Part shown: one piece after another, positions 5,807 through 27,774 of the stretch
How the letters are laid out: each line of letters starts with the position of its first letter
How positions within the stretch are numbered: position 1 is the first letter of the stretch
Source of the DNA: Clostridia bacterium
Lineage (GTDB): Bacteria; Bacillota; Clostridia; TANB77; RGIG9151
Assembly: GCA_017934955.1 (NCBI GenBank)
Contig: JAGBIO010000025.1
Span: forward strand, 72,787-104,786
Reading direction: 5' to 3'
DNA length: 32,000 nucleotides
Notes under the pieces: model-generated
Database searches by the model: none
Seen by the model: the letters and a program-made list of their open reading frames with translations, nothing else
What the model was told of the DNA's origin: nothing
Made by a program: the position numbers and the translations under genes

Positions 5807-5898
5807 GGCACAAACCTTGTAGGGACAGCATTTATGCTGTCCTACTTTTCTACCTTTTCTGTGGACAGCATGAATGCTGTCCCTACAGGGTTTGTGCC
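5807..5898. repeat. REPIN-like inverted doublet of GTAG-hairpin units with ggcacaaac/gtttgtgcc outer arms
   Basis: ggcacaaaccttGTAGGGACAGCATTTATGCTGTCC...GGACAGCATGAATGCTGTCCCTACagggtttgtgcc. Followed by T8, so it probably also terminates the ger operon. Confidence 0.9.
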
Positions 5899-7061: not shown

Positions 7062-7089
7062 GGGACGTTGAGGACGCCGTCCCCTACGG
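7062..7089. repeat. solo/collapsed copy of the second repeat family (gggacgttgaggacgccgtcccctac)
   Basis: On the reverse strand it reads GTAG + GGGACG...CGTCCC hairpin. Its halves match the two termini of the 180-bp element at 18659-18838. Confidence 0.7.
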
Positions 7090-13488: not shown

Positions 13489-13641
13489 GTTACAGGTCAG
13501 ACTTAAATTTATAGAGAAGGCACGAACACTGTAGGGACAGCATTTATGCTGTCCGCGGAATAGGCAGAAAGCAGGACAGCATAAATGCTGTCCGTACAAT
13601 GGTTGCGCATCATTGTAGGACGATATAGTCTGACTTGTAAC
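13489..13641. mobile_element. MITE (153 bp) with TIRs gttacaggtcagact / agtctgacttgtaac and an internal REP doublet
   Basis: Perfect 8-bp direct duplication GTAGAGAA at 13481-13488 and 13642-13649 flanks the inverted termini. Inserted right after the stop codon of the 3D-domain gene. Confidence 0.85.
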
Positions 13642-13670
13642 GTAGAGAAAAGATATTTAATTAGAAAATA

Positions 13671-13699
13671 TTGACAAAAGAAAGAAAATAGGGTAATCT
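13671..13699 (+). promoter_or_regulatory. sigma-A-like promoter TTGACA-17-TAATCT (candidate antitoxin sRNA, unit 1)
   Basis: TTGACA 13671-13676, 17-nt spacer, TAATCT 13694-13699. The block ttagaaaatattgaca is conserved at 14158-14173. Confidence 0.6.
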
Positions 13700-13705
13700 A
13701 ATAGT

Positions 13706-13777
13706 AGAAACTTTAGAAACTTATCCGTTTTATATGGACAACAAAAAAGGATGCTGGGGGCATCCTTTTTTGTTGTC
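13706..13777 (+). ncRNA. candidate ~70-nt antitoxin sRNA, unit 1
   Basis: Runs from the promoter above to the terminator at 13737-13777. Contains tttagaaacttatccgt (13712-13728), an exact direct repeat of 13838-13854, so it is perfectly complementary over 17 nt to the convergent mRNA just after its SD. Ends are approximate. Confidence 0.5.
13737..13777. terminator. bidirectional intrinsic terminator shared by convergent transcripts (unit 1)
   Basis: ggacaacAAAAAAGGATGCtgggGGCATCCTTTTTTgttgtc. GC stem flanked by A6 and T6, extended by ggacaac/gttgtc. Confidence 0.8.
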
Positions 13778-13782
13778 TGTGT

Positions 13783-13863
13783 TTAGGAGCAAGTACTTGT
13801 AAGAACAAGAAACACGACAATAAGTATAACTATAAATTTTAGAAACTTATCCGTAAGAATCAC
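13783..13863 (-). CDS. candidate type I toxin, small hydrophobic peptide (up to 26 aa: VILTDKFLKFIVILIVVFLVLTSTCS)
   Basis: Strong SD AAAGGAGG (13863-13870 on the + strand). Open frame to TAA at 13783-13785 just before the terminator. One TM-like stretch. Start is uncertain: the only in-frame canonical start (GTG 13863) overlaps the SD, and the codon homologous to the well-spaced GTG of unit 2 is ACG (13854). Confidence 0.4.
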   Translation of the reverse strand: MILTDKFLKFIVILIVVFLVLTSTCS

Positions 13864-13899
13864 CTCCTTTCAACAGAGATTATCCTTACGGACAAAAAG

Positions 13900-13928
13900 A
13901 GAATACCATATATTGTAAAATTTTACGA
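13900..13928 (-). promoter_or_regulatory. candidate promoter of the unit 1 toxin mRNA (TCGTAA-17-TATTCT; alternative -10 TACAAT)
   Basis: AT-rich block ttttacaatatatggtatt is conserved with unit 2 (14393-14421). The exact hexamers are ambiguous. Confidence 0.3.
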
Positions 13929-13987
13929 TATGTTTAAAATGTTTTTGTTGGTAAATTTGTGTTGAAGTATAAGTATAGAAATACTTT

Positions 13988-14150
13988 GTTACAATTCAGA
14001 CTCAAATTTATATATGTACCTTAAATTTTCCTCAGTCTATTGTAGGGACAGCATTTATGCTGTCCTGCTTTCTGCCTTTTCTGTGGACAGCATGAATGCT
14101 GTCCCTACATTGTTTGTGCCTTCTCTATAAATTTGAGTCTGATTAGTAAC
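13988..14150. mobile_element. MITE (163 bp) with TIRs gttacaattcagactcaaatttata / tataaatttgagtctgattagtaac and an internal REP doublet
   Basis: Perfect 8-bp direct duplication AATACTTT at 13980-13987 and 14151-14158. The internal part is nearly identical to 5807-5898. Confidence 0.85.
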
Positions 14151-14167
14151 AATACTTTTAGAAAATA

Positions 14168-14196
14168 TTGACAGAAGAAGGAAAATGAGATAATAT
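14168..14196 (+). promoter_or_regulatory. sigma-A-like promoter TTGACA-17-TAATAT (candidate antitoxin sRNA, unit 2)
   Basis: TTGACA 14168-14173, 17-nt spacer, TAATAT 14191-14196. Confidence 0.6.
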
Positions 14197-14202
14197 AATT
14201 AT

Positions 14203-14283
14203 AGAAGTATTATTTTGATTATATGTCTTGCTTTATACGGACAAAGAAAAAAGGGTGTTGGTGGCACCCTTTTTTCTTTGTCC
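14203..14283 (+). ncRNA. candidate ~80-nt antitoxin sRNA, unit 2
   Basis: Contains ttgattatatgtct (14215-14228), a 13/14 direct repeat of ttgactatatgtct (14331-14344). The mismatch gives a G:U pair with the convergent mRNA, and the duplex covers its start codon. Ends at the terminator 14239-14283. Ends are approximate. Confidence 0.5.
14239..14283. terminator. bidirectional intrinsic terminator (unit 2)
   Basis: ggacaaagAAAAAAGGGTGttggtggCACCCTTTTTTctttgtcc. Confidence 0.8.
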
Positions 14284-14299
14284 ATCTCAGTAGCATTCA

Positions 14300-14347
14300 C
14301 TAACAATAAGTAATAAGTAGGACGACTATCTTGACTATATGTCTCAC
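14300..14347 (-). CDS. candidate type I toxin remnant or very short peptide (15 aa: MRHIVKIVVLLITYC)
   Basis: AAAGGAGG then 8 nt then GTG (14347). Stops at TAG TGA (14300-14302 and beyond). The N-terminus resembles the 29-aa peptide at 18374 (MSRKYIVKII). Shortness suggests truncation. Confidence 0.35.
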   Translation of the reverse strand: MRHIVKIVVLLITYC

Positions 14348-14392
14348 AAGGTTCACCTCCTTTCAATAGAGATTATCCTTACGGACGAGAAA

Positions 14393-14421
14393 ACAATACC
14401 ATATATTGTAAAATATTACAA
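14393..14421 (-). promoter_or_regulatory. candidate promoter of the unit 2 toxin mRNA (TTGTAA-17-TATTGT)
   Basis: Conserved with 13900-13928. The hexamers are weak matches. Confidence 0.3.
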
Positions 14422-14461
14422 TATATTTAAATTAAAAAATCCTAAAATTTACAAAATTCTA

Positions 14462-16638: not shown

Positions 16639-18146
16639 AACTTAAAGTCATCTTTACCAATTCCGCCGGTTACAATCAGAAATAAGAAGTACAGAACGCA
16701 AATAATTCCGGTACCGATAATGACGTAGTAGAGTGGTGAAAGTAGAAACTTTTGTGTGAGATAAGTCATGGCAAGAATAGCAAGCGAAACAGAAATAAGC
16801 GGTTTGATAATCCATTTGGAGAGATTGATTTGGGTGTGAGTGGCTTTTAAGGTTTTATAGATGTTTAACGAAGAGGTTGTGATATTGCTTAAAATCATAA
16901 TTCCAATAAAAATCGTTAAGCCGTGTTTAGGGACAAATATATAAATAAGCGGTAATCGTATGAGGGCGTCGAAGATGTTGTATTTTAAGGAACTCATTTG
17001 TTCATTTAATCCTTGTAGAATTCCCATGACGACAGTTTCTAAGTACATAAATGGGACGATGGGGGCTAACATTTTTAAAATAGTTCCGATTTCGATTTCA
17101 TGGTAAATCAGTTCGGCGAGTTCATAGGAAAAAGCGAAGAAAATTCCGGCAATCAAGATAGAGAGTGTAATGGCGATATGAAAGGTTTTATCAGCCATTT
17201 TTTTTACTTTTTCGCTTTGCCCTAAAATCTTTGCTTCTGCCATTTCGGGAATCAGTAAAGTGGAGAAGGCGGTGAGGAGGGAAGAAGGAAAGAAAAGAAT
17301 CGGCATCGCCATTCCTTTTAACATTCCGAATTGGGCTAAAGAAGTTTCTCGGGAACCGGTAAATTGGCGTAAAGATTCGGGAACCAGCATATTTTCGTAA
17401 GTTCGCAATCCGGTATTTAGGTATTTATTGAAAGCAACCGGCGCAGCGGAGCCAATCATCTTTTTGGTAATGTGAGGACTTTTTATTTTTGCAAGATAGG
17501 GATTTCTATGTCTCTTTTTTTCCTTGCGGTAAGCAATATACGAGTAAAGGCAAGAGGACATTTCGGAGATTACGTCTCCAATCATAACGGCAAGACAAGC
17601 GGCATCAATTCCATAAGGAATGAAGTGGTCGATAAGAAAGAAGATAATAACAAGTCTTACGATTTGCTCTAAAATTTGTGCTTCGGAGGGAATCGAGACT
17701 CTTCGGTGGGCGATAAAATATCCTTTAATGCAGGAAGTGGTAGCCATAAAGGGAAGAGCGAAGATTGTGACGGTGAGAGAGGGAATGGTTCGGACATCGT
17801 TAATCCAGTATTTCCCGATATAACCAGCGGAAAAGTACATAACGGTAGAGAGGCAGAGTCCCCAGCAGATACAGAGAAGCAAGGTTTTCCGAAAGGCTTT
17901 TATCGTACTTTCTTTTGTACCTACTGCTATTTCGTCACTAACAACTTGGATAACACCGGTAGAGACTCCGGCAGTGGCGAAGGTAGCGGCCATCATGTAG
18001 ACCGAGAGAATGACTTGGTATAATCCCATTCCTTCGGCTCCGATTTTATTTGAGAGATAAACTCGTAACAACATTCCAAGCCCGCGGAGAATAAAGGCGG
18101 TTACGGTTAAAATAACGGCATTTTTCAGAAAGATAAATTTTTTCAA
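16626..18146 (-). CDS. spoVB: stage V sporulation protein B / MOP-superfamily flippase
   Basis: About 14 TM. N-terminus KNAVILTVTAFILRGLGMLLRVYLSNKIGAEGMGLYQ is typical of SpoVB. Start set at TTG 18146, 8 nt after AAAGGAG. The track start at 18230 lies in the REP hairpin. Confidence 0.8.
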   Translation of the reverse strand: MKKFIFLKNAVILTVTAFILRGLGMLLRVYLSNKIGAEGMGLYQVILSVYMMAATFATAGVSTGVIQVVSDEIAVGTKESTIKAFRKTLLLCICWGLCLSTVMYFSAGYIGKYWINDVRTIPSLTVTIFALPFMATTSCIKGYFIAHRRVSIPSEAQILEQIVRLVIIFFLIDHFIPYGIDAACLAVMIGDVISEMSSCLYSYIAYRKEKKRHRNPYLAKIKSPHITKKMIGSAAPVAFNKYLNTGLRTYENMLVPESLRQFTGSRETSLAQFGMLKGMAMPILFFPSSLLTAFSTLLIPEMAEAKILGQSEKVKKMADKTFHIAITLSILIAGIFFAFSYELAELIYHEIEIGTILKMLAPIVPFMYLETVVMGILQGLNEQMSSLKYNIFDALIRLPLIYIFVPKHGLTIFIGIMILSNITTSSLNIYKTLKATHTQINLSKWIIKPLISVSLAILAMTYLTQKFLLSPLYYVIIGTGIICVLYFLFLIVTGGIGKDDFKLKKD

Positions 18147-18221
18147 TCGGCTCACTCCTTTAGTGCATGTATATTTTGCGTGAGTGGGATTTATACCGAT
18201 TGCGTTGAGAGAAAAAGAATT

Positions 18222-18245
18222 GGACAGCATGAATGCTGTCCGTAC
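18222..18245. repeat. solo REP-like hairpin ggacagcatgaatgctgtcc + gtac
   Basis: Perfect palindrome. With its flanks it reads TGGACA-16-TACAAT (18221-18248). Confidence 0.9.
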
Positions 18246-18276
18246 AATAAAAATGTAAAAAATTTCAAATTTAATC

Positions 18277-18305
18277 TTGAAAATTTTGGAATTCTATAGT
18301 ATAGT
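18277..18305 (+). promoter_or_regulatory. sigma-A-like promoter TTGAAA-17-TATAGT for the small-ORF mRNA
   Basis: TTGAAA 18277-18282, 17-nt spacer, TATAGT 18300-18305. Confidence 0.6.
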
Positions 18306-18373
18306 ACTTTTACAAGAGAGAAAATTGAAAACGGTCAGCGGTTGTTTCACCTCGCAAGGGAGGTGAGTTGCCT

Positions 18374-18463
18374 ATGAGCAGAAAATACATAGTAAAAATA
18401 ATTTTTAGAGTATTTGTTCTATCTATTATCTTTATATTGTTTTTCCCTTATATAGCAAAATAA
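18374..18463 (+). CDS. candidate type I toxin, 29-aa hydrophobic peptide MSRKYIVKIIFRVFVLSIIFILFFPYIAK
   Basis: ATG 10 nt after GGGAGGTGA. The SD is sequestered by the hairpin tcacctc(18347-18353)/gaggtga(18360-18366). Basic N-terminus plus one TM-length hydrophobic stretch and a C-terminal Lys. Too short for the ORF track. Confidence 0.55.
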   Translation: MSRKYIVKIIFRVFVLSIIFILFFPYIAK

Positions 18464-18546
18464 CCGCTTCTCCATCAAAGTATGCGGTTATTTGCTAACT
18501 AAATTATTTTGGTGAGACAACCGTTGATACGATTTTCTCTCTTGCT
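18455..18546 (-). ncRNA. candidate antisense/convergent sRNA (antitoxin candidate)
   Basis: Driven by the consensus promoter at 18553-18581. It would run into the 3' end of the small ORF through the stem gcaaaataaccgc/gcggttatttgc. The 3' end is uncertain because there is no clean U-tract. Confidence 0.45.
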
Positions 18547-18552
18547 ATATTT

Positions 18553-18581
18553 ATTATATCGTATATTTTAAAATATGTCAA
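18553..18581 (-). promoter_or_regulatory. perfect consensus sigma-A promoter TTGACA-17-TATAAT on the minus strand
   Basis: + strand attata 18553-18558 and tgtcaa 18576-18581, 17-nt spacer. No protein gene lies downstream of it. Confidence 0.7.
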
Positions 18582-18658
18582 TTTTTAACTTCTTATTTTA
18601 AGATTTTATTTTAAGATTTTCATGTTACTGTTTAGGCTAAAATTGTTGCAAATATATT

Positions 18659-18838
18659 GGGACGTCGAGGACGGAGGCTGCTGAAAAAGTACGATTTTTT
18701 TGAAAAATTTCATTTTCCCCAGGTCAAAAATCATTACCCAACGTTCCAAAATTGATTGTAGACGATTTATAAGCTAACAATTTTTGGAAACTGTTTTTTT
18801 TGAGAACTTTTTCAGCAGCTTCCGAGGACGCCGTCCCC
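18659..18838. mobile_element. 180-bp MITE-like element with ~32-nt terminal inverted repeats (second family)
   Basis: gggacgtcgaggacggaggctgctgaaaaagt ... actttttcagcagcttccgaggacgccgtcccc. The right end continues as ctac, giving GTAGGGGAC on the reverse strand. A collapsed copy is at 7062-7089. Confidence 0.7.
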
Positions 18839-18890
18839 TACAAACGTTTTTTTATCGATATTTTCAAAAATTATCAATCTATAGACTGAA

Positions 18891-19562
18891 CTATAAGATT
18901 TGCATTGCTTTTTCATAAATTTCTTTGTGAATGTCTTCGATACTGCGTAAAGTTCCGTCTTTTGTGCAGTTAATTTCATCCCAGTTGAATTTTTCGATTA
19001 AGTAGCAAGCACTGGTGTACATTTTATTTAAGTATTCTTTATTGCTTTCATGGATGTCTTTTTCTTTTTCATGGGAAAATTTATTTTCACGTTCTGCCAT
19101 GAGTTTTTGACTGACTTCAGGCGGGATATTTAGGAAGAAGACCTTGTCGGGAACAGGAATTCCGAATAGGTTAAATTCGAAGTCCCAGAGCCATTTTAGA
19201 AATTTATCCCGTTCTTCGATATCGTCGATTTTTCCGGCTTGGTGTACCATGTTGGCGGTGACATAGCGATCTAAGATTAAAATTCCGCCGTTTTTGTAGA
19301 ATTCTTCATAGTCTTGTTTATAAGAAGCATAGCGATCTACTGCATAAAAGGTTGAGGCGATATACGGACTGATTTCGTTTGGATTTTTTCCGAATTCGCC
19401 GGAGAGATACATTTTTACAAGGGAAGAGGATGGATTTTCATATCTTGGGTAAGCTATTTTCATGACCGGATAATTTTCTTCTTTTAGTCGTTGATACAAT
19501 TTTTCTGATTGTGTTTGTTTTCCGCAACCATCTAAGCCTTCTATTACAATGATTTTTCCCAT
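18891..19562 (-). CDS. tmk: thymidylate kinase
   Basis: MGKIIVIEGLDGCGKQTQ P-loop, DRY motif (LDRYVTANMVHQ). Start set at ATG 19562; the track TTG at 19580 contains the SD. Confidence 0.85.
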   Translation of the reverse strand: MGKIIVIEGLDGCGKQTQSEKLYQRLKEENYPVMKIAYPRYENPSSSLVKMYLSGEFGKNPNEISPYIASTFYAVDRYASYKQDYEEFYKNGGILILDRYVTANMVHQAGKIDDIEERDKFLKWLWDFEFNLFGIPVPDKVFFLNIPPEVSQKLMAERENKFSHEKEKDIHESNKEYLNKMYTSACYLIEKFNWDEINCTKDGTLRSIEDIHKEIYEKAMQIL

Positions 19563-19591: not shown

Positions 19592-19763
19592 GTTACAGGT
19601 CAGACTAAAAATTATAGAGAAGGCAGAGATAGTGTAGAGACACAATTTATTGTGTCCACGAAATAGGCAGACGGTAGAATTAGGACACAATGAATTGTGT
19701 CCCTACAAACGGGATATTACCGATATTTTTCGAAAGATACAAGATTATAGTCTGATTAATAAC
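19592..19763. mobile_element. MITE (172 bp) with TIRs gttacaggtcagact / agtctgattaataac and an internal ACACAAT-variant REP doublet
   Basis: The left arm is near-identical to 13489-13530. Flanking 8-mers TAATATTA / TAATTCTA are 6/8 identical. Occupies the divergent tmk / yaaR intergenic region. Confidence 0.75.
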
Positions 19764-26831: not shown

Positions 26832-27047
26832 ATGAGAGAAGAAATAGAAAGTATGGTAAGCAGGATACTGCGGAGTTCTAATGTAAAGAGATATAGAGAC
26901 AAGATAAGAAGATTGGAAAATGAGCTCACCCAATCTTTAAACAAAAGGGAATTAAGGATTTTTTTGGAATATGAGAGATTAGTGAATGAAGAGTTGTATG
27001 AAATTATATTAATGATTATTCAAATGAAAGAAGATGATTTGGCGTAA
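26832..27047 (+). CDS. hypothetical 71-aa charged helical protein
   Basis: AAGGAG 9 nt upstream. No recognisable family. The 3' end overlaps the convergent XRE gene by 32 nt. Confidence 0.5.
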   Translation: MREEIESMVSRILRSSNVKRYRDKIRRLENELTQSLNKRELRIFLEYERLVNEELYEIILMIIQMKEDDLA

Positions 27048-27258
27048 CATCTAAGGCTTTCGCAATTTCATACAATTCATAATCGGAAACAAATCGCTTT
27101 CCGGATTCAATTCGAGAGATGACGATTCTGTCTATTTTTACTTCATTAATTTCTAATTTCGCGGCAAGTTGGTCTTGTGTAAGCCCTTTTTGTATTCTTA
27201 ATTCTCTTACTTTCTTACCGATAATATTTTTATGTTGGGATTGATTTGTTGTTTTCAT
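27016..27258 (-). CDS. XRE-family helix-turn-helix transcriptional regulator
   Basis: Start at ATG 27258 after GGGAGG. IGKKVRELRIQKGLTQDQLAAKL...ISRIESGKR is an HTH_3 pattern. Confidence 0.85.
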   Translation of the reverse strand: MKTTNQSQHKNIIGKKVRELRIQKGLTQDQLAAKLEINEVKIDRIVISRIESGKRFVSDYELYEIAKALDVTPNHLLSFE

Positions 27259-27600: not shown

Positions 27601-27774
27601 ATGAAGAGAACAATTGACGAAATAGAAAAAGAAATTAATGTATTACGAGCCCAAATGGATAGTATGTTAGATGAGGGAATAAAAGACCATGTTCCTACGC
27701 CGGAAGTGTTGGACATCAGTAGAAAGATTGATGTATTACTGATGGAACATCAAAGGACCATAATGGAATCTTGA
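27601..27774 (+). CDS. Spo0E-family aspartyl-phosphate phosphatase-like protein
   Basis: Start at ATG 27601 after GGAGGTG. 57 aa. IEKEINVLRAQM...EVLDISRKIDVLLMEH matches the Spo0E-like two-helix pattern. Confidence 0.7.
   Translation: MKRTIDEIEKEINVLRAQMDSMLDEGIKDHVPTPEVLDISRKIDVLLMEHQRTIMES

Follow-up and report, generated by a model that had tools for sequence, protein, structure and literature searches.

Introduction

In the type I toxin mRNAs of hok and aapA1, a long-distance interaction of the 5' end with the 3' end makes the full-length form inert, stable and poorly translated (PMC5416894). On the toxin RNA of the par locus, RNA I, a 5' upstream helix and a stem-loop over the Shine-Dalgarno sequence (SD) are the acting elements (PMC7472228). 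Clostridia have convergent antisense RNAs that form long overlaps, and duplex-dependent cleavage has been proposed for the convergent Clostridial and Bacillus systems (PMC6563280). Here we analyse a module at positions 18277-18581 of a 32-kb stretch of DNA (hereafter the window) taken from a 165-kb metagenome scaffold of an uncultured Clostridia bacterium (ENA ERZ28654807, scaffold_188), in which a 29-codon open reading frame (ORF) is enclosed by inverted repeats and by two inward-facing promoters. We give about even chances to the reading that this module is an orphan, chromosomally inserted type I toxin-antitoxin (TA)-like locus. From its sequence it appears to belong to no named family, and in its predicted design a fold-back mRNA would be met by an antisense RNA converging on its 3' end. 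This overall reading, already put forward in an initial annotation of the same DNA, fits both the anatomy of the module (hydrophobic small ORF, buried SD and convergent promoter) and its genomic context.

Anatomy of the module

The candidate toxin gene lies behind P+, a sigma-70-like promoter of the + strand (TTGAAA-17-TATAGT, 18277-18305) that matches the consensus at 10 of 12 positions and whose predicted start (~18312-18313) is the first base of the 5' arm of the inverted repeats. The SD GGAGGUGA / GGAGGTGA at 18359-18366 precedes an ATG at 18374, which opens a 29-codon frame closed by the TAA at 18461-18463. Its product, MSRKYIVKIIFRVFVLSIIFILFFPYIAK, is a candidate membrane toxin with 72% hydrophobic residues, a basic N-terminus and one hydrophobic span predicted to cross the membrane, a profile that agrees with the type I toxin format of a hydrophobic peptide below 60 aa with a single predicted membrane span. 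The ORF is absent from the public gene-caller annotation. A scan for non-genic, hydrophobic small ORFs with a strong SD returned 23 matches in ~0.7 Mb of related loci, the majority of them in this module or in par-like modules, and the SD-ATG-29-codon ORF signature is rare in that DNA outside such modules.

Translation of this frame would be limited by a hairpin (UCACCUC-GCAAGG-GAGGUGA, 18347-18366, + strand; z -3.3 for the hairpin alone), in which 7 bp join UCACCUC (18347-18353) to GAGGUGA (18360-18366) in the minimum free energy (MFE) fold. The SD bases 18360-18364 have a predicted unpaired probability of <=0.06 in the full-length RNA and of ~0 once the RNA is cut at 18497 or 18510, with a modelled opening cost of ~9 kcal/mol. 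By prediction, the candidate gene has a promoter of its own and a structure limiting translation, as type I toxin genes do.

Facing P+ is P- (TTGACA-17-TATAAT, 18553-18581, - strand), which matches the consensus at 12 of 12 positions and is the sole such site within the window, where sites with at most one mismatch number 5 against 0.36 expected. P- is located 90 nt beyond the stop codon of the small ORF, convergent on the candidate toxin gene, with a predicted start at ~18545-18546. Both promoters lie outside the inverted repeats at matching distance, and the -10 box of each ends 7-8 nt (7 nt for P+) ahead of an identical CAAGAGAG, so that both predicted transcripts would start at the base of an arm. 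The two promoter sequences align weakly with each other. All the coordinates first proposed for promoters, SD, ORF and repeats were recovered on re-scanning, although the accompanying remark that P- has no protein gene to serve has to be amended: a spoVB-like ORF lies 407 nt downstream on the same strand, with a terminator-like palindrome of the repetitive extragenic palindromic (REP) type, GGACAGCATTCATGCTGTCC then AATTCTTTTT (18222-18241, - strand, terminator scan), and its T-run in between.

A predicted helix closing the mRNA

The arms of the inverted repeats, 18313-18351 and 18511-18544, are made of a perfect 13-nt repeat (18313-18325/18532-18544) and of a 17-nt repeat matching at 88% (18335-18351/18511-18527). 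On the + strand they provide the 5' arm (CAAGAGAGAAAAU...GGUUGUUUCACC), whose last five nucleotides (UCACC) are also part of the anti-SD, and the 3' arm of a closing helix, P1. Read on the - strand, the 3' arm is the 5' leader of the candidate antisense RNA. The proposed leader sequence common to both predicted transcripts was confirmed, as was the predicted sequestration of the SD in the MFE structure.

The region 18311-18547 folds at -84.6 kcal/mol on the + strand (z = -9.6) and at -73.8 kcal/mol on the - strand (z = -8.2). In the MFE, the + strand RNA is a four-way junction composed of P1, the SD hairpin, a hairpin within the ORF and a hairpin over the stop codon, P1 being formed of 15 + 13 bp and reaching 33 bp when the arms are folded alone. 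Prediction hence backs a hok-type folding of the 5' end onto the 3' end, as had been suggested, through a 33-bp helix of -47.1 kcal/mol on the + strand, a long-distance interaction that requires read-through of the stop-codon hairpin. The same arms give -35.2 kcal/mol on the - strand; P1 is stronger by ~12 kcal/mol on the + strand because its five non-Watson-Crick positions are all G.U on + and A.C on -. This asymmetry is modest evidence that P1 matters in the + strand RNA, which would then include the 3' arm, and the peptide mRNA would have to extend past the central hairpin.

Taken separately, the sub-helices have z scores between -3.0 and -6.2 relative to shuffled controls. The ORF hairpin is long and imperfect, and pairs the start-codon region with the end of the ORF (18373-18452, + strand, MFE; z -3.0). 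The stop-codon hairpin, detected by inverted-repeat search and folding, is symmetrical (AGCAAAAUAACCGC-16 nt-GCGGUUAUUUGCU, 18453-18497) and folds on both strands (-17.9 kcal/mol and z -6.2 on +; -17.2 kcal/mol and z -4.8 on -), compared with -32.3 kcal/mol for the terminator of unit 2, a par/Fst-style module located elsewhere in the window. The terminator scan accepted loops of 3-8 nt and hence did not report this hairpin with its 16-nt loop; it is a possible weak bidirectional terminator and the possible minimal overlap of sense and antisense RNAs. Read-through on the + strand would run into a REPIN-like hairpin and a T-run near 18850. This REPIN-like element (18659-18837; inverted-repeat search), with 32-nt inverted arms, a 115-nt spacer and a T-run following it on the + strand, is a possible stop. 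Read-through on the - strand would run into the REP hairpin and T-run at 18241-18222, which scores as a - strand terminator.

The candidate antisense RNA is complementary in full to the 3' arm, to the central hairpin and to the ORF end. Its leader folds into a local 5' stem-loop (GAGA-AAUCGU-AUCA-ACGGUU-UCUC, 18507-18532, - strand; -9.8 kcal/mol, z -3.4) with no such counterpart in the equivalent region of the + strand leader (-3.5 kcal/mol, z +1.0), the difference arising from a 5-nt indel between the arms. This predicted succession of a 5' stem-loop, a single-stranded stretch and a hairpin suggests an antisense RNA. The initial annotation also pointed out that this RNA would bear its own copy of the anti-SD. 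An action of this copy in trans on the toxin SD, through a 6-nt CUCACC/GGUGAG pairing, was rejected on pairing energy, the antisense 5' domain being predicted to pair with the toxin translation start at -17.0 kcal/mol against -18.3 +/- 3.2 kcal/mol for shuffled sequences, i.e. not above chance. Since the two leaders are identical and not complementary, and the trans contact is at chance level, the antisense RNA would have to act through its cis overlap.

Comparison with described type I systems

In its predicted fold, the module resembles hok/sok (plasmid R1) and aapA1/IsoA1 (Helicobacter pylori), which share with it a hydrophobic peptide of the 29-30-aa class (AapA1 has 30 aa) and a ~230-250-nt mRNA with a long-distance 5'-3' helix, a buried SD and a strong antisense promoter (PMC5416894). 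Their antisense RNAs cover the 5' untranslated region or the translation start, whereas that of the module would converge on the 3' end; 3' trimming frees their SD, whereas the SD of the module is predicted to stay buried after 3' truncation. The hok/aapA pairing of 5' antisense with activation by 3' trimming was thus not found in the module, which has no sequence similarity to these loci.

The par/Fst system (pAD1 RNA I/RNA II) resembles the module in its convergent promoters, its shared central hairpin, its SD-hiding 5' stem-loop and a helix over the 5' end (PMC7472228). In the module the partner of the 5' end is, unlike in par, located beyond the central hairpin, which is itself far weaker than a par-type terminator. 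In addition, par/Fst needs direct repeats (DRa/DRb) and complementary 5' regions, whereas the repeats of the module are inverted and its leaders identical: no direct repeat of >=10 nt was found between 18313-18400 and 18494-18546, and the 5'-5' complementarity of toxin and antitoxin RNAs seen in par/Fst was not recovered there. The Fst peptide carries a PXXXG(C) motif and a charged tail, whereas the C-terminus of the module peptide, FFPYIAK, has neither, and the peptide matched neither Fst_toxin nor any other Pfam or NCBIfam model.

Unlike in the module, the par layout is present in unit 1 (13655-13945) and unit 2 (14155-14445) of the window, both of them par/Fst-style type I TA modules on the - strand, each with an SD and a small ORF (MRHIVKIVVLLITYC in unit 2; the unit 1 peptide ends in ...VFLVLTSTCS), a convergent TTGACA promoter and a strong bidirectional terminator (13737-13777 and 14239-14283). 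Owing to direct repeats (13705-13728/13831-13854 and 14202-14228/14318-14344), the 5' end of the antisense RNA is complementary to the start region of the toxin in both units. The N-terminal likeness of the module peptide to the unit 2 ORF had been taken to suggest one toxin family. We could not maintain this suggestion: the likeness of the peptides comes down to a short R-x-hydrophobic-hydrophobic-K-I motif, module and unit 2 DNA show no alignment beyond promoter and SD, and neither peptide matches any family model. Homology of the module to units 1 and 2 was rejected for want of alignment support.

Finally, txpA/RatA, bsrG/SR4, bsrE/SR5 and yonT/SR6 of Bacillus subtilis and the CD2517.1/RCd8-type loci of Clostridioides difficile have, as predicted for the module, a convergent antisense RNA that covers the 3' end of the mRNA for a small hydrophobic toxin. 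The action expected of these antisense RNAs is duplex-triggered degradation (PMC6563280). None of the systems is homologous to the module, and their toxins mostly count 30-59 aa and have charged tails. To our knowledge, no description of them includes a 5'-3' closing helix in which the antisense RNA targets the 3' arm, or a leader shared by sense and antisense RNAs. Nor do we know of any account of a fold-back mRNA paired with an antisense RNA whose start lies at the outer end of the mRNA's 3' arm, so that the two RNAs share the leader sequence of the mRNA.

Genomic context and distribution

The module lies in a gap of 750 bp that two genes of the minus strand enclose: tmk (thymidylate kinase, 18891-19562/19580) and a spoVB-like gene (16626 to ~18146, with a likely TTG start at 18146) encoding a MOP-family flippase that matched Pfam Polysacc_synt/MatE and, below the model cutoff, TIGR02900. 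By thymidylate kinase, the closest GTDB species reaches only 81% identity, and orthologous loci were reached via the SpoVB-like protein. The related strain L075 (SpoVB 98% identical; DNA 97.2% identical over 3.2 kb) carries the module with 3 single-nucleotide polymorphisms (SNPs) in 305 nt (1.0%). One affects the spacer of P-. The other two are inside the RNA and fall in predicted loops, G18359A in that of the SD hairpin and T18414C in the apical one of the ORF hairpin. Outside the module, the two strains differ at 86 of 2,895 aligned nt (3.0%), with 3.9% divergence in spoVB (49 of the 59 changes at third positions; 49 of 507 third positions differing), 0.9% in tmk and 3-10% in the neighbouring intergenic pieces. 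The low divergence of the module hints at sequence constraint, confounded by recombination blocks.

In the next relative, L077 (82% SpoVB identity), tmk and spoVB are 68 bp apart without the module (window 18195-18890 against L077 2933-2953), and conservation with the window is limited to the 55 nt nearest to spoVB. The spacing in L077 implies that ~695 bp of the window, comprising the REPIN-like element, the module and the REP hairpin 18222-18241, represent a lineage-specific insert, and the retention of the spoVB-proximal 55 nt without the module implies that spoVB does not depend on P-. Among the tmk loci of GTDB species (<=81% identity), 0 of 68 have a spoVB neighbour and 0 of 68 the module, while spoVB orthologues at 66-72% identity occur in other genomic contexts with unrelated upstream regions. 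This variable spacing and adjacency of tmk and spoVB indicates that the neighbourhood was rearranged repeatedly. Patchy, insert-borne distributions are typical for type I TA loci, and this insert fits that pattern.

Another relative (L090/L091) has a textbook par/Fst-style module upstream of spoVB, with a small ORF (MPRFFKIFLLVLLLLIMLTSPCT) whose peptide is of the same family as that of window unit 1, a strong bidirectional terminator, a perfect convergent promoter and a direct repeat of the start region. Peptides of the same type, ending in ...LTSPCT and ...LTSTCA (L090 2248-2319 and 4125-4196), flank spoVB in this relative. From these sequences the clade appears to acquire small-toxin/antisense cassettes habitually in such gaps, which raises the prior for a type I TA-like reading. 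The context of the module fits as well, since this genome and its relatives carry small-ORF/antisense modules of the par/Fst style between their genes.

Searches for homologues brought no family. Neither the 29-aa peptide nor the unit 1, unit 2 and L090-type peptides matched Pfam, NCBIfam, PHROGs or PADLOC; phmmer with a 31-aa form of the module peptide gave 0 matches in 1.84 billion representative proteins, and tblastn of the peptide none in plasmids and phages, against which blastn of the module returned AT-rich chance matches only. In viral contigs, exact-pattern scans for the leader, the SD hairpin, the paired termini and the N-terminal back-translation gave 0 matches or a single chance match, and the C-terminal back-translation chance matches only. 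A leader-pattern scan of JGI metagenomes gave 10 matches, all of them single arms in coding DNA of unrelated G+C, i.e. chance. Rfam had 0 matches in the whole window at the gathering threshold and chance matches only in 18100-18950 at E up to 10, and a search for tRNA and tmRNA genes found none. Three other candidates were set aside: a retron msr/msd, no reverse transcriptase being annotated among the genes near the module; a 6S or signal recognition particle RNA, given the branched fold and the lack of an Rfam match; and a prgQ/prgX-type peptide-pheromone cassette, no RRNPP-type regulator being annotated among the neighbouring genes.

Weighing the toxin-antitoxin reading

Several observations tell against a type I TA-like locus of this design. 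The peptide lacks the charged C-terminal tail that is common in type I toxins, and the only coding SNP in L075, T18414C, is non-synonymous (F14S). The tmk gene is as conserved as the module, and the low SNP count of the latter may reflect a low-divergence block and not selection. The SD is predicted to be buried with or without the 3' arm, leaving no evident route of activation, and the modelled fold-back does not itself control translation, unlike in hok and aapA1. Of the five G.U pairs, two are at helix ends picked by the folding algorithm. Moreover, the hairpin 18453-18497, with its 5 G-C-rich pairs, 16-nt loop and -17 kcal/mol, should terminate poorly, so that the transcript ends are guesses and P1 needs read-through on the + strand. 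Finally, the searched collections hold no homologue with which covariation or peptide conservation could be assessed.

A different account, which we regard as rather unlikely, makes the locus a non-toxic gene for a small membrane protein, or a small RNA of dual function with a small ORF, whose expression the convergent antisense RNA tunes with no addiction or stress logic. The expression signals would be the same, the peptide has neither a charged tail nor a toxin-family match, and sporulation and envelope genes adjoin the module (spoVB-like). A heavily locked SD, a perfect antisense promoter and a lineage-specific insertion among debris of REP and miniature inverted-repeat transposable elements (MITEs) are however more typical of selfish type I modules than of housekeeping small proteins, and the module is absent in the closest relative.

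The inverted repeats could also have no role at the RNA level and be the scar of an inverted promoter-leader duplication or degenerate MITE-like termini, in which case the rest may still be a TA module with both transcripts ending at the shared hairpin. REP, REPIN and MITE-like inverted repeats are abundant in the surrounding DNA, the promoters align weakly with each other, and both transcripts could stop at the hairpin 18453-18497 before P1 has formed. Arguing against such an origin, which we consider improbable, the leader 13-mer occurs only at its two arm sites in the window and in the 49 kb of scaffold searched for further copies, and no visible target-site duplication was found. That the repeats might be the termini of a generic mobile element present elsewhere had been foreseen in the initial annotation; no second copy of the module was found in these 49 kb, in JGI metagenomes, in viral contigs, in plasmids or in phages. 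The exclusive occurrence of G.U at the non-Watson-Crick positions of one strand, and the position of the promoters outside the repeats at matching distance, also speak against such an origin.

A structured non-coding RNA of 232 nt, a four-way junction closed by P1, with an incidental ORF, and with P- producing an antisense regulator or the two promoters interfering, would explain the very strong fold (z -9.6), the position of both L075 SNPs of the RNA in loops, one of them altering the peptide, and the fact that the ORF region is itself a long hairpin. We hold it for still less probable: Rfam brought no matching family even with E raised to 10, covariation has no homologues in which it could be seen, and a canonical GGAGGUGA well spaced from an ATG with a 29-codon open frame is unlikely by chance at ~30% G+C.

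Alternatively, P- could be the vegetative promoter of spoVB, the module its long structured 5' leader, and the + strand promoter and ORF an antisense brake. This is compatible with spoVB lying downstream on the same strand and with no other promoter-like site being reported between P- and spoVB. We judge it very unlikely, given the intervening terminator-like REP hairpin and T-run, the conservation of the 55 nt upstream of spoVB in L077, where spoVB follows tmk after 68 bp without the module, the unrelated upstream regions in relatives and the better fold on the + strand. Least probable of all, to the point of being nearly dismissed, is an inverton flipping the ORF segment between the two inward-facing promoters by site-specific recombination: imperfect inverted repeats of 13 + 17 bp do surround a ~160-bp segment, dimensions typical of Clostridia invertons, but the segment contains no promoter, the genes listed for the ~3 kb to each side include no annotated recombinase, the module has one and the same orientation in all five independent assemblies or contigs that cover it, a Logan contig passes through it unbroken, and a flipped ORF would still sit behind a promoter.

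Proposed mechanism

If the module is a type I TA-like locus, P+ would transcribe the toxin mRNA from the base of the 5' arm, this mRNA would encode the single-span hydrophobic peptide of 29 aa, and the local SD hairpin would lock its translation. Read-through of the weak hairpin 18453-18497 would then allow the 33-bp helix between 18313-18351 and 18511-18544 to close the mRNA and shield both of its ends from exonucleases, as in fold-back toxin mRNAs. From the outer end of the 3' arm, P-, by its sequence much the stronger of the two promoters, would make an antisense RNA of ~90 nt if stopping at the shared hairpin, or of ~330 nt if reaching the REP terminator at 18241-18222. We infer that the resulting duplex at the 3' end would be an RNase III substrate and that its formation would free the 5' arm from the 3' arm, opening the mRNA 5' end to a 5'-exonuclease, with the outcome that the toxin message would be destroyed and not translationally blocked. 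A more specific version, "leader mimicry", supposes that the antitoxin RNA, bearing a copy of the mRNA 5' arm, competes for the 3' arm, dissolves the closing helix and exposes the ends to nucleases; we consider this version doubtful.

Repeat families and small genes elsewhere in the window

The window contains REP-like palindromes of the form GGACAGCAT(K)(M)ATGCTGTCC, with GTAGG/TACA heads and often in inverted doublets (5863-5882, 13535-13554, 13574-13593, 14046-14065, 14085-14104 and 18222-18241, with a further copy beyond the window at +33742). The head GTAGGGGACGGCGTCC marks a second repeat family, which occurs at 18659-18837 and whose head recurs at 7072-7087 and, outside the window, at +33888 and +35257. 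Its REPIN-like copy at 18659-18837 has arms that are 81% complementary, and Logan contigs break exactly at the arm 18659-18688, consistent with repeated sequence. MITE-like composites of ~165 nt (13489-13650, 13986-14152 and 19594-19762), with termini GTTACA(G/A)(G/T)TCAGACT...AAATTTATA, enclose REP doublets. Unit 1 is bracketed by inverted copies of 112 nt (13489-13600/14039-14150, 90% complementary), so that the unit may itself lie within a larger foldback or mobile structure.

A 1.1-kb gene-poor stretch of the window holds a 57-aa Spo0E-like ORF (27601-27774, + strand), which matches Pfam PF09388 at 24.8 bits where the cutoff is 23 and adjoins an 80-aa XRE-type helix-turn-helix gene of the opposite strand (27016-27258, -), and a 71-aa ORF (26832-27047, +) without family match.

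Implications

Homology searches detect type I TA loci only with difficulty, and in the uncultured Clostridia of the gut these loci have hardly been charted. The module and the nearby par-style units indicate that such genomes carry several unannotated candidate small-toxin modules, in intergenic hot spots beside REP and MITE elements. Were leader mimicry true, the inverted repeat would be the functional core of the locus, uniting fold-back protection and antisense attack at one site. If the fold-back helix and the 3' antisense do act on one and the same arm, this would represent a new mode of antisense control, which removes the protection of the mRNA ends instead of blocking the ribosome. The module would then offer a compact and testable model of such a control; otherwise, it would be one more orphan small-ORF/antisense pair.

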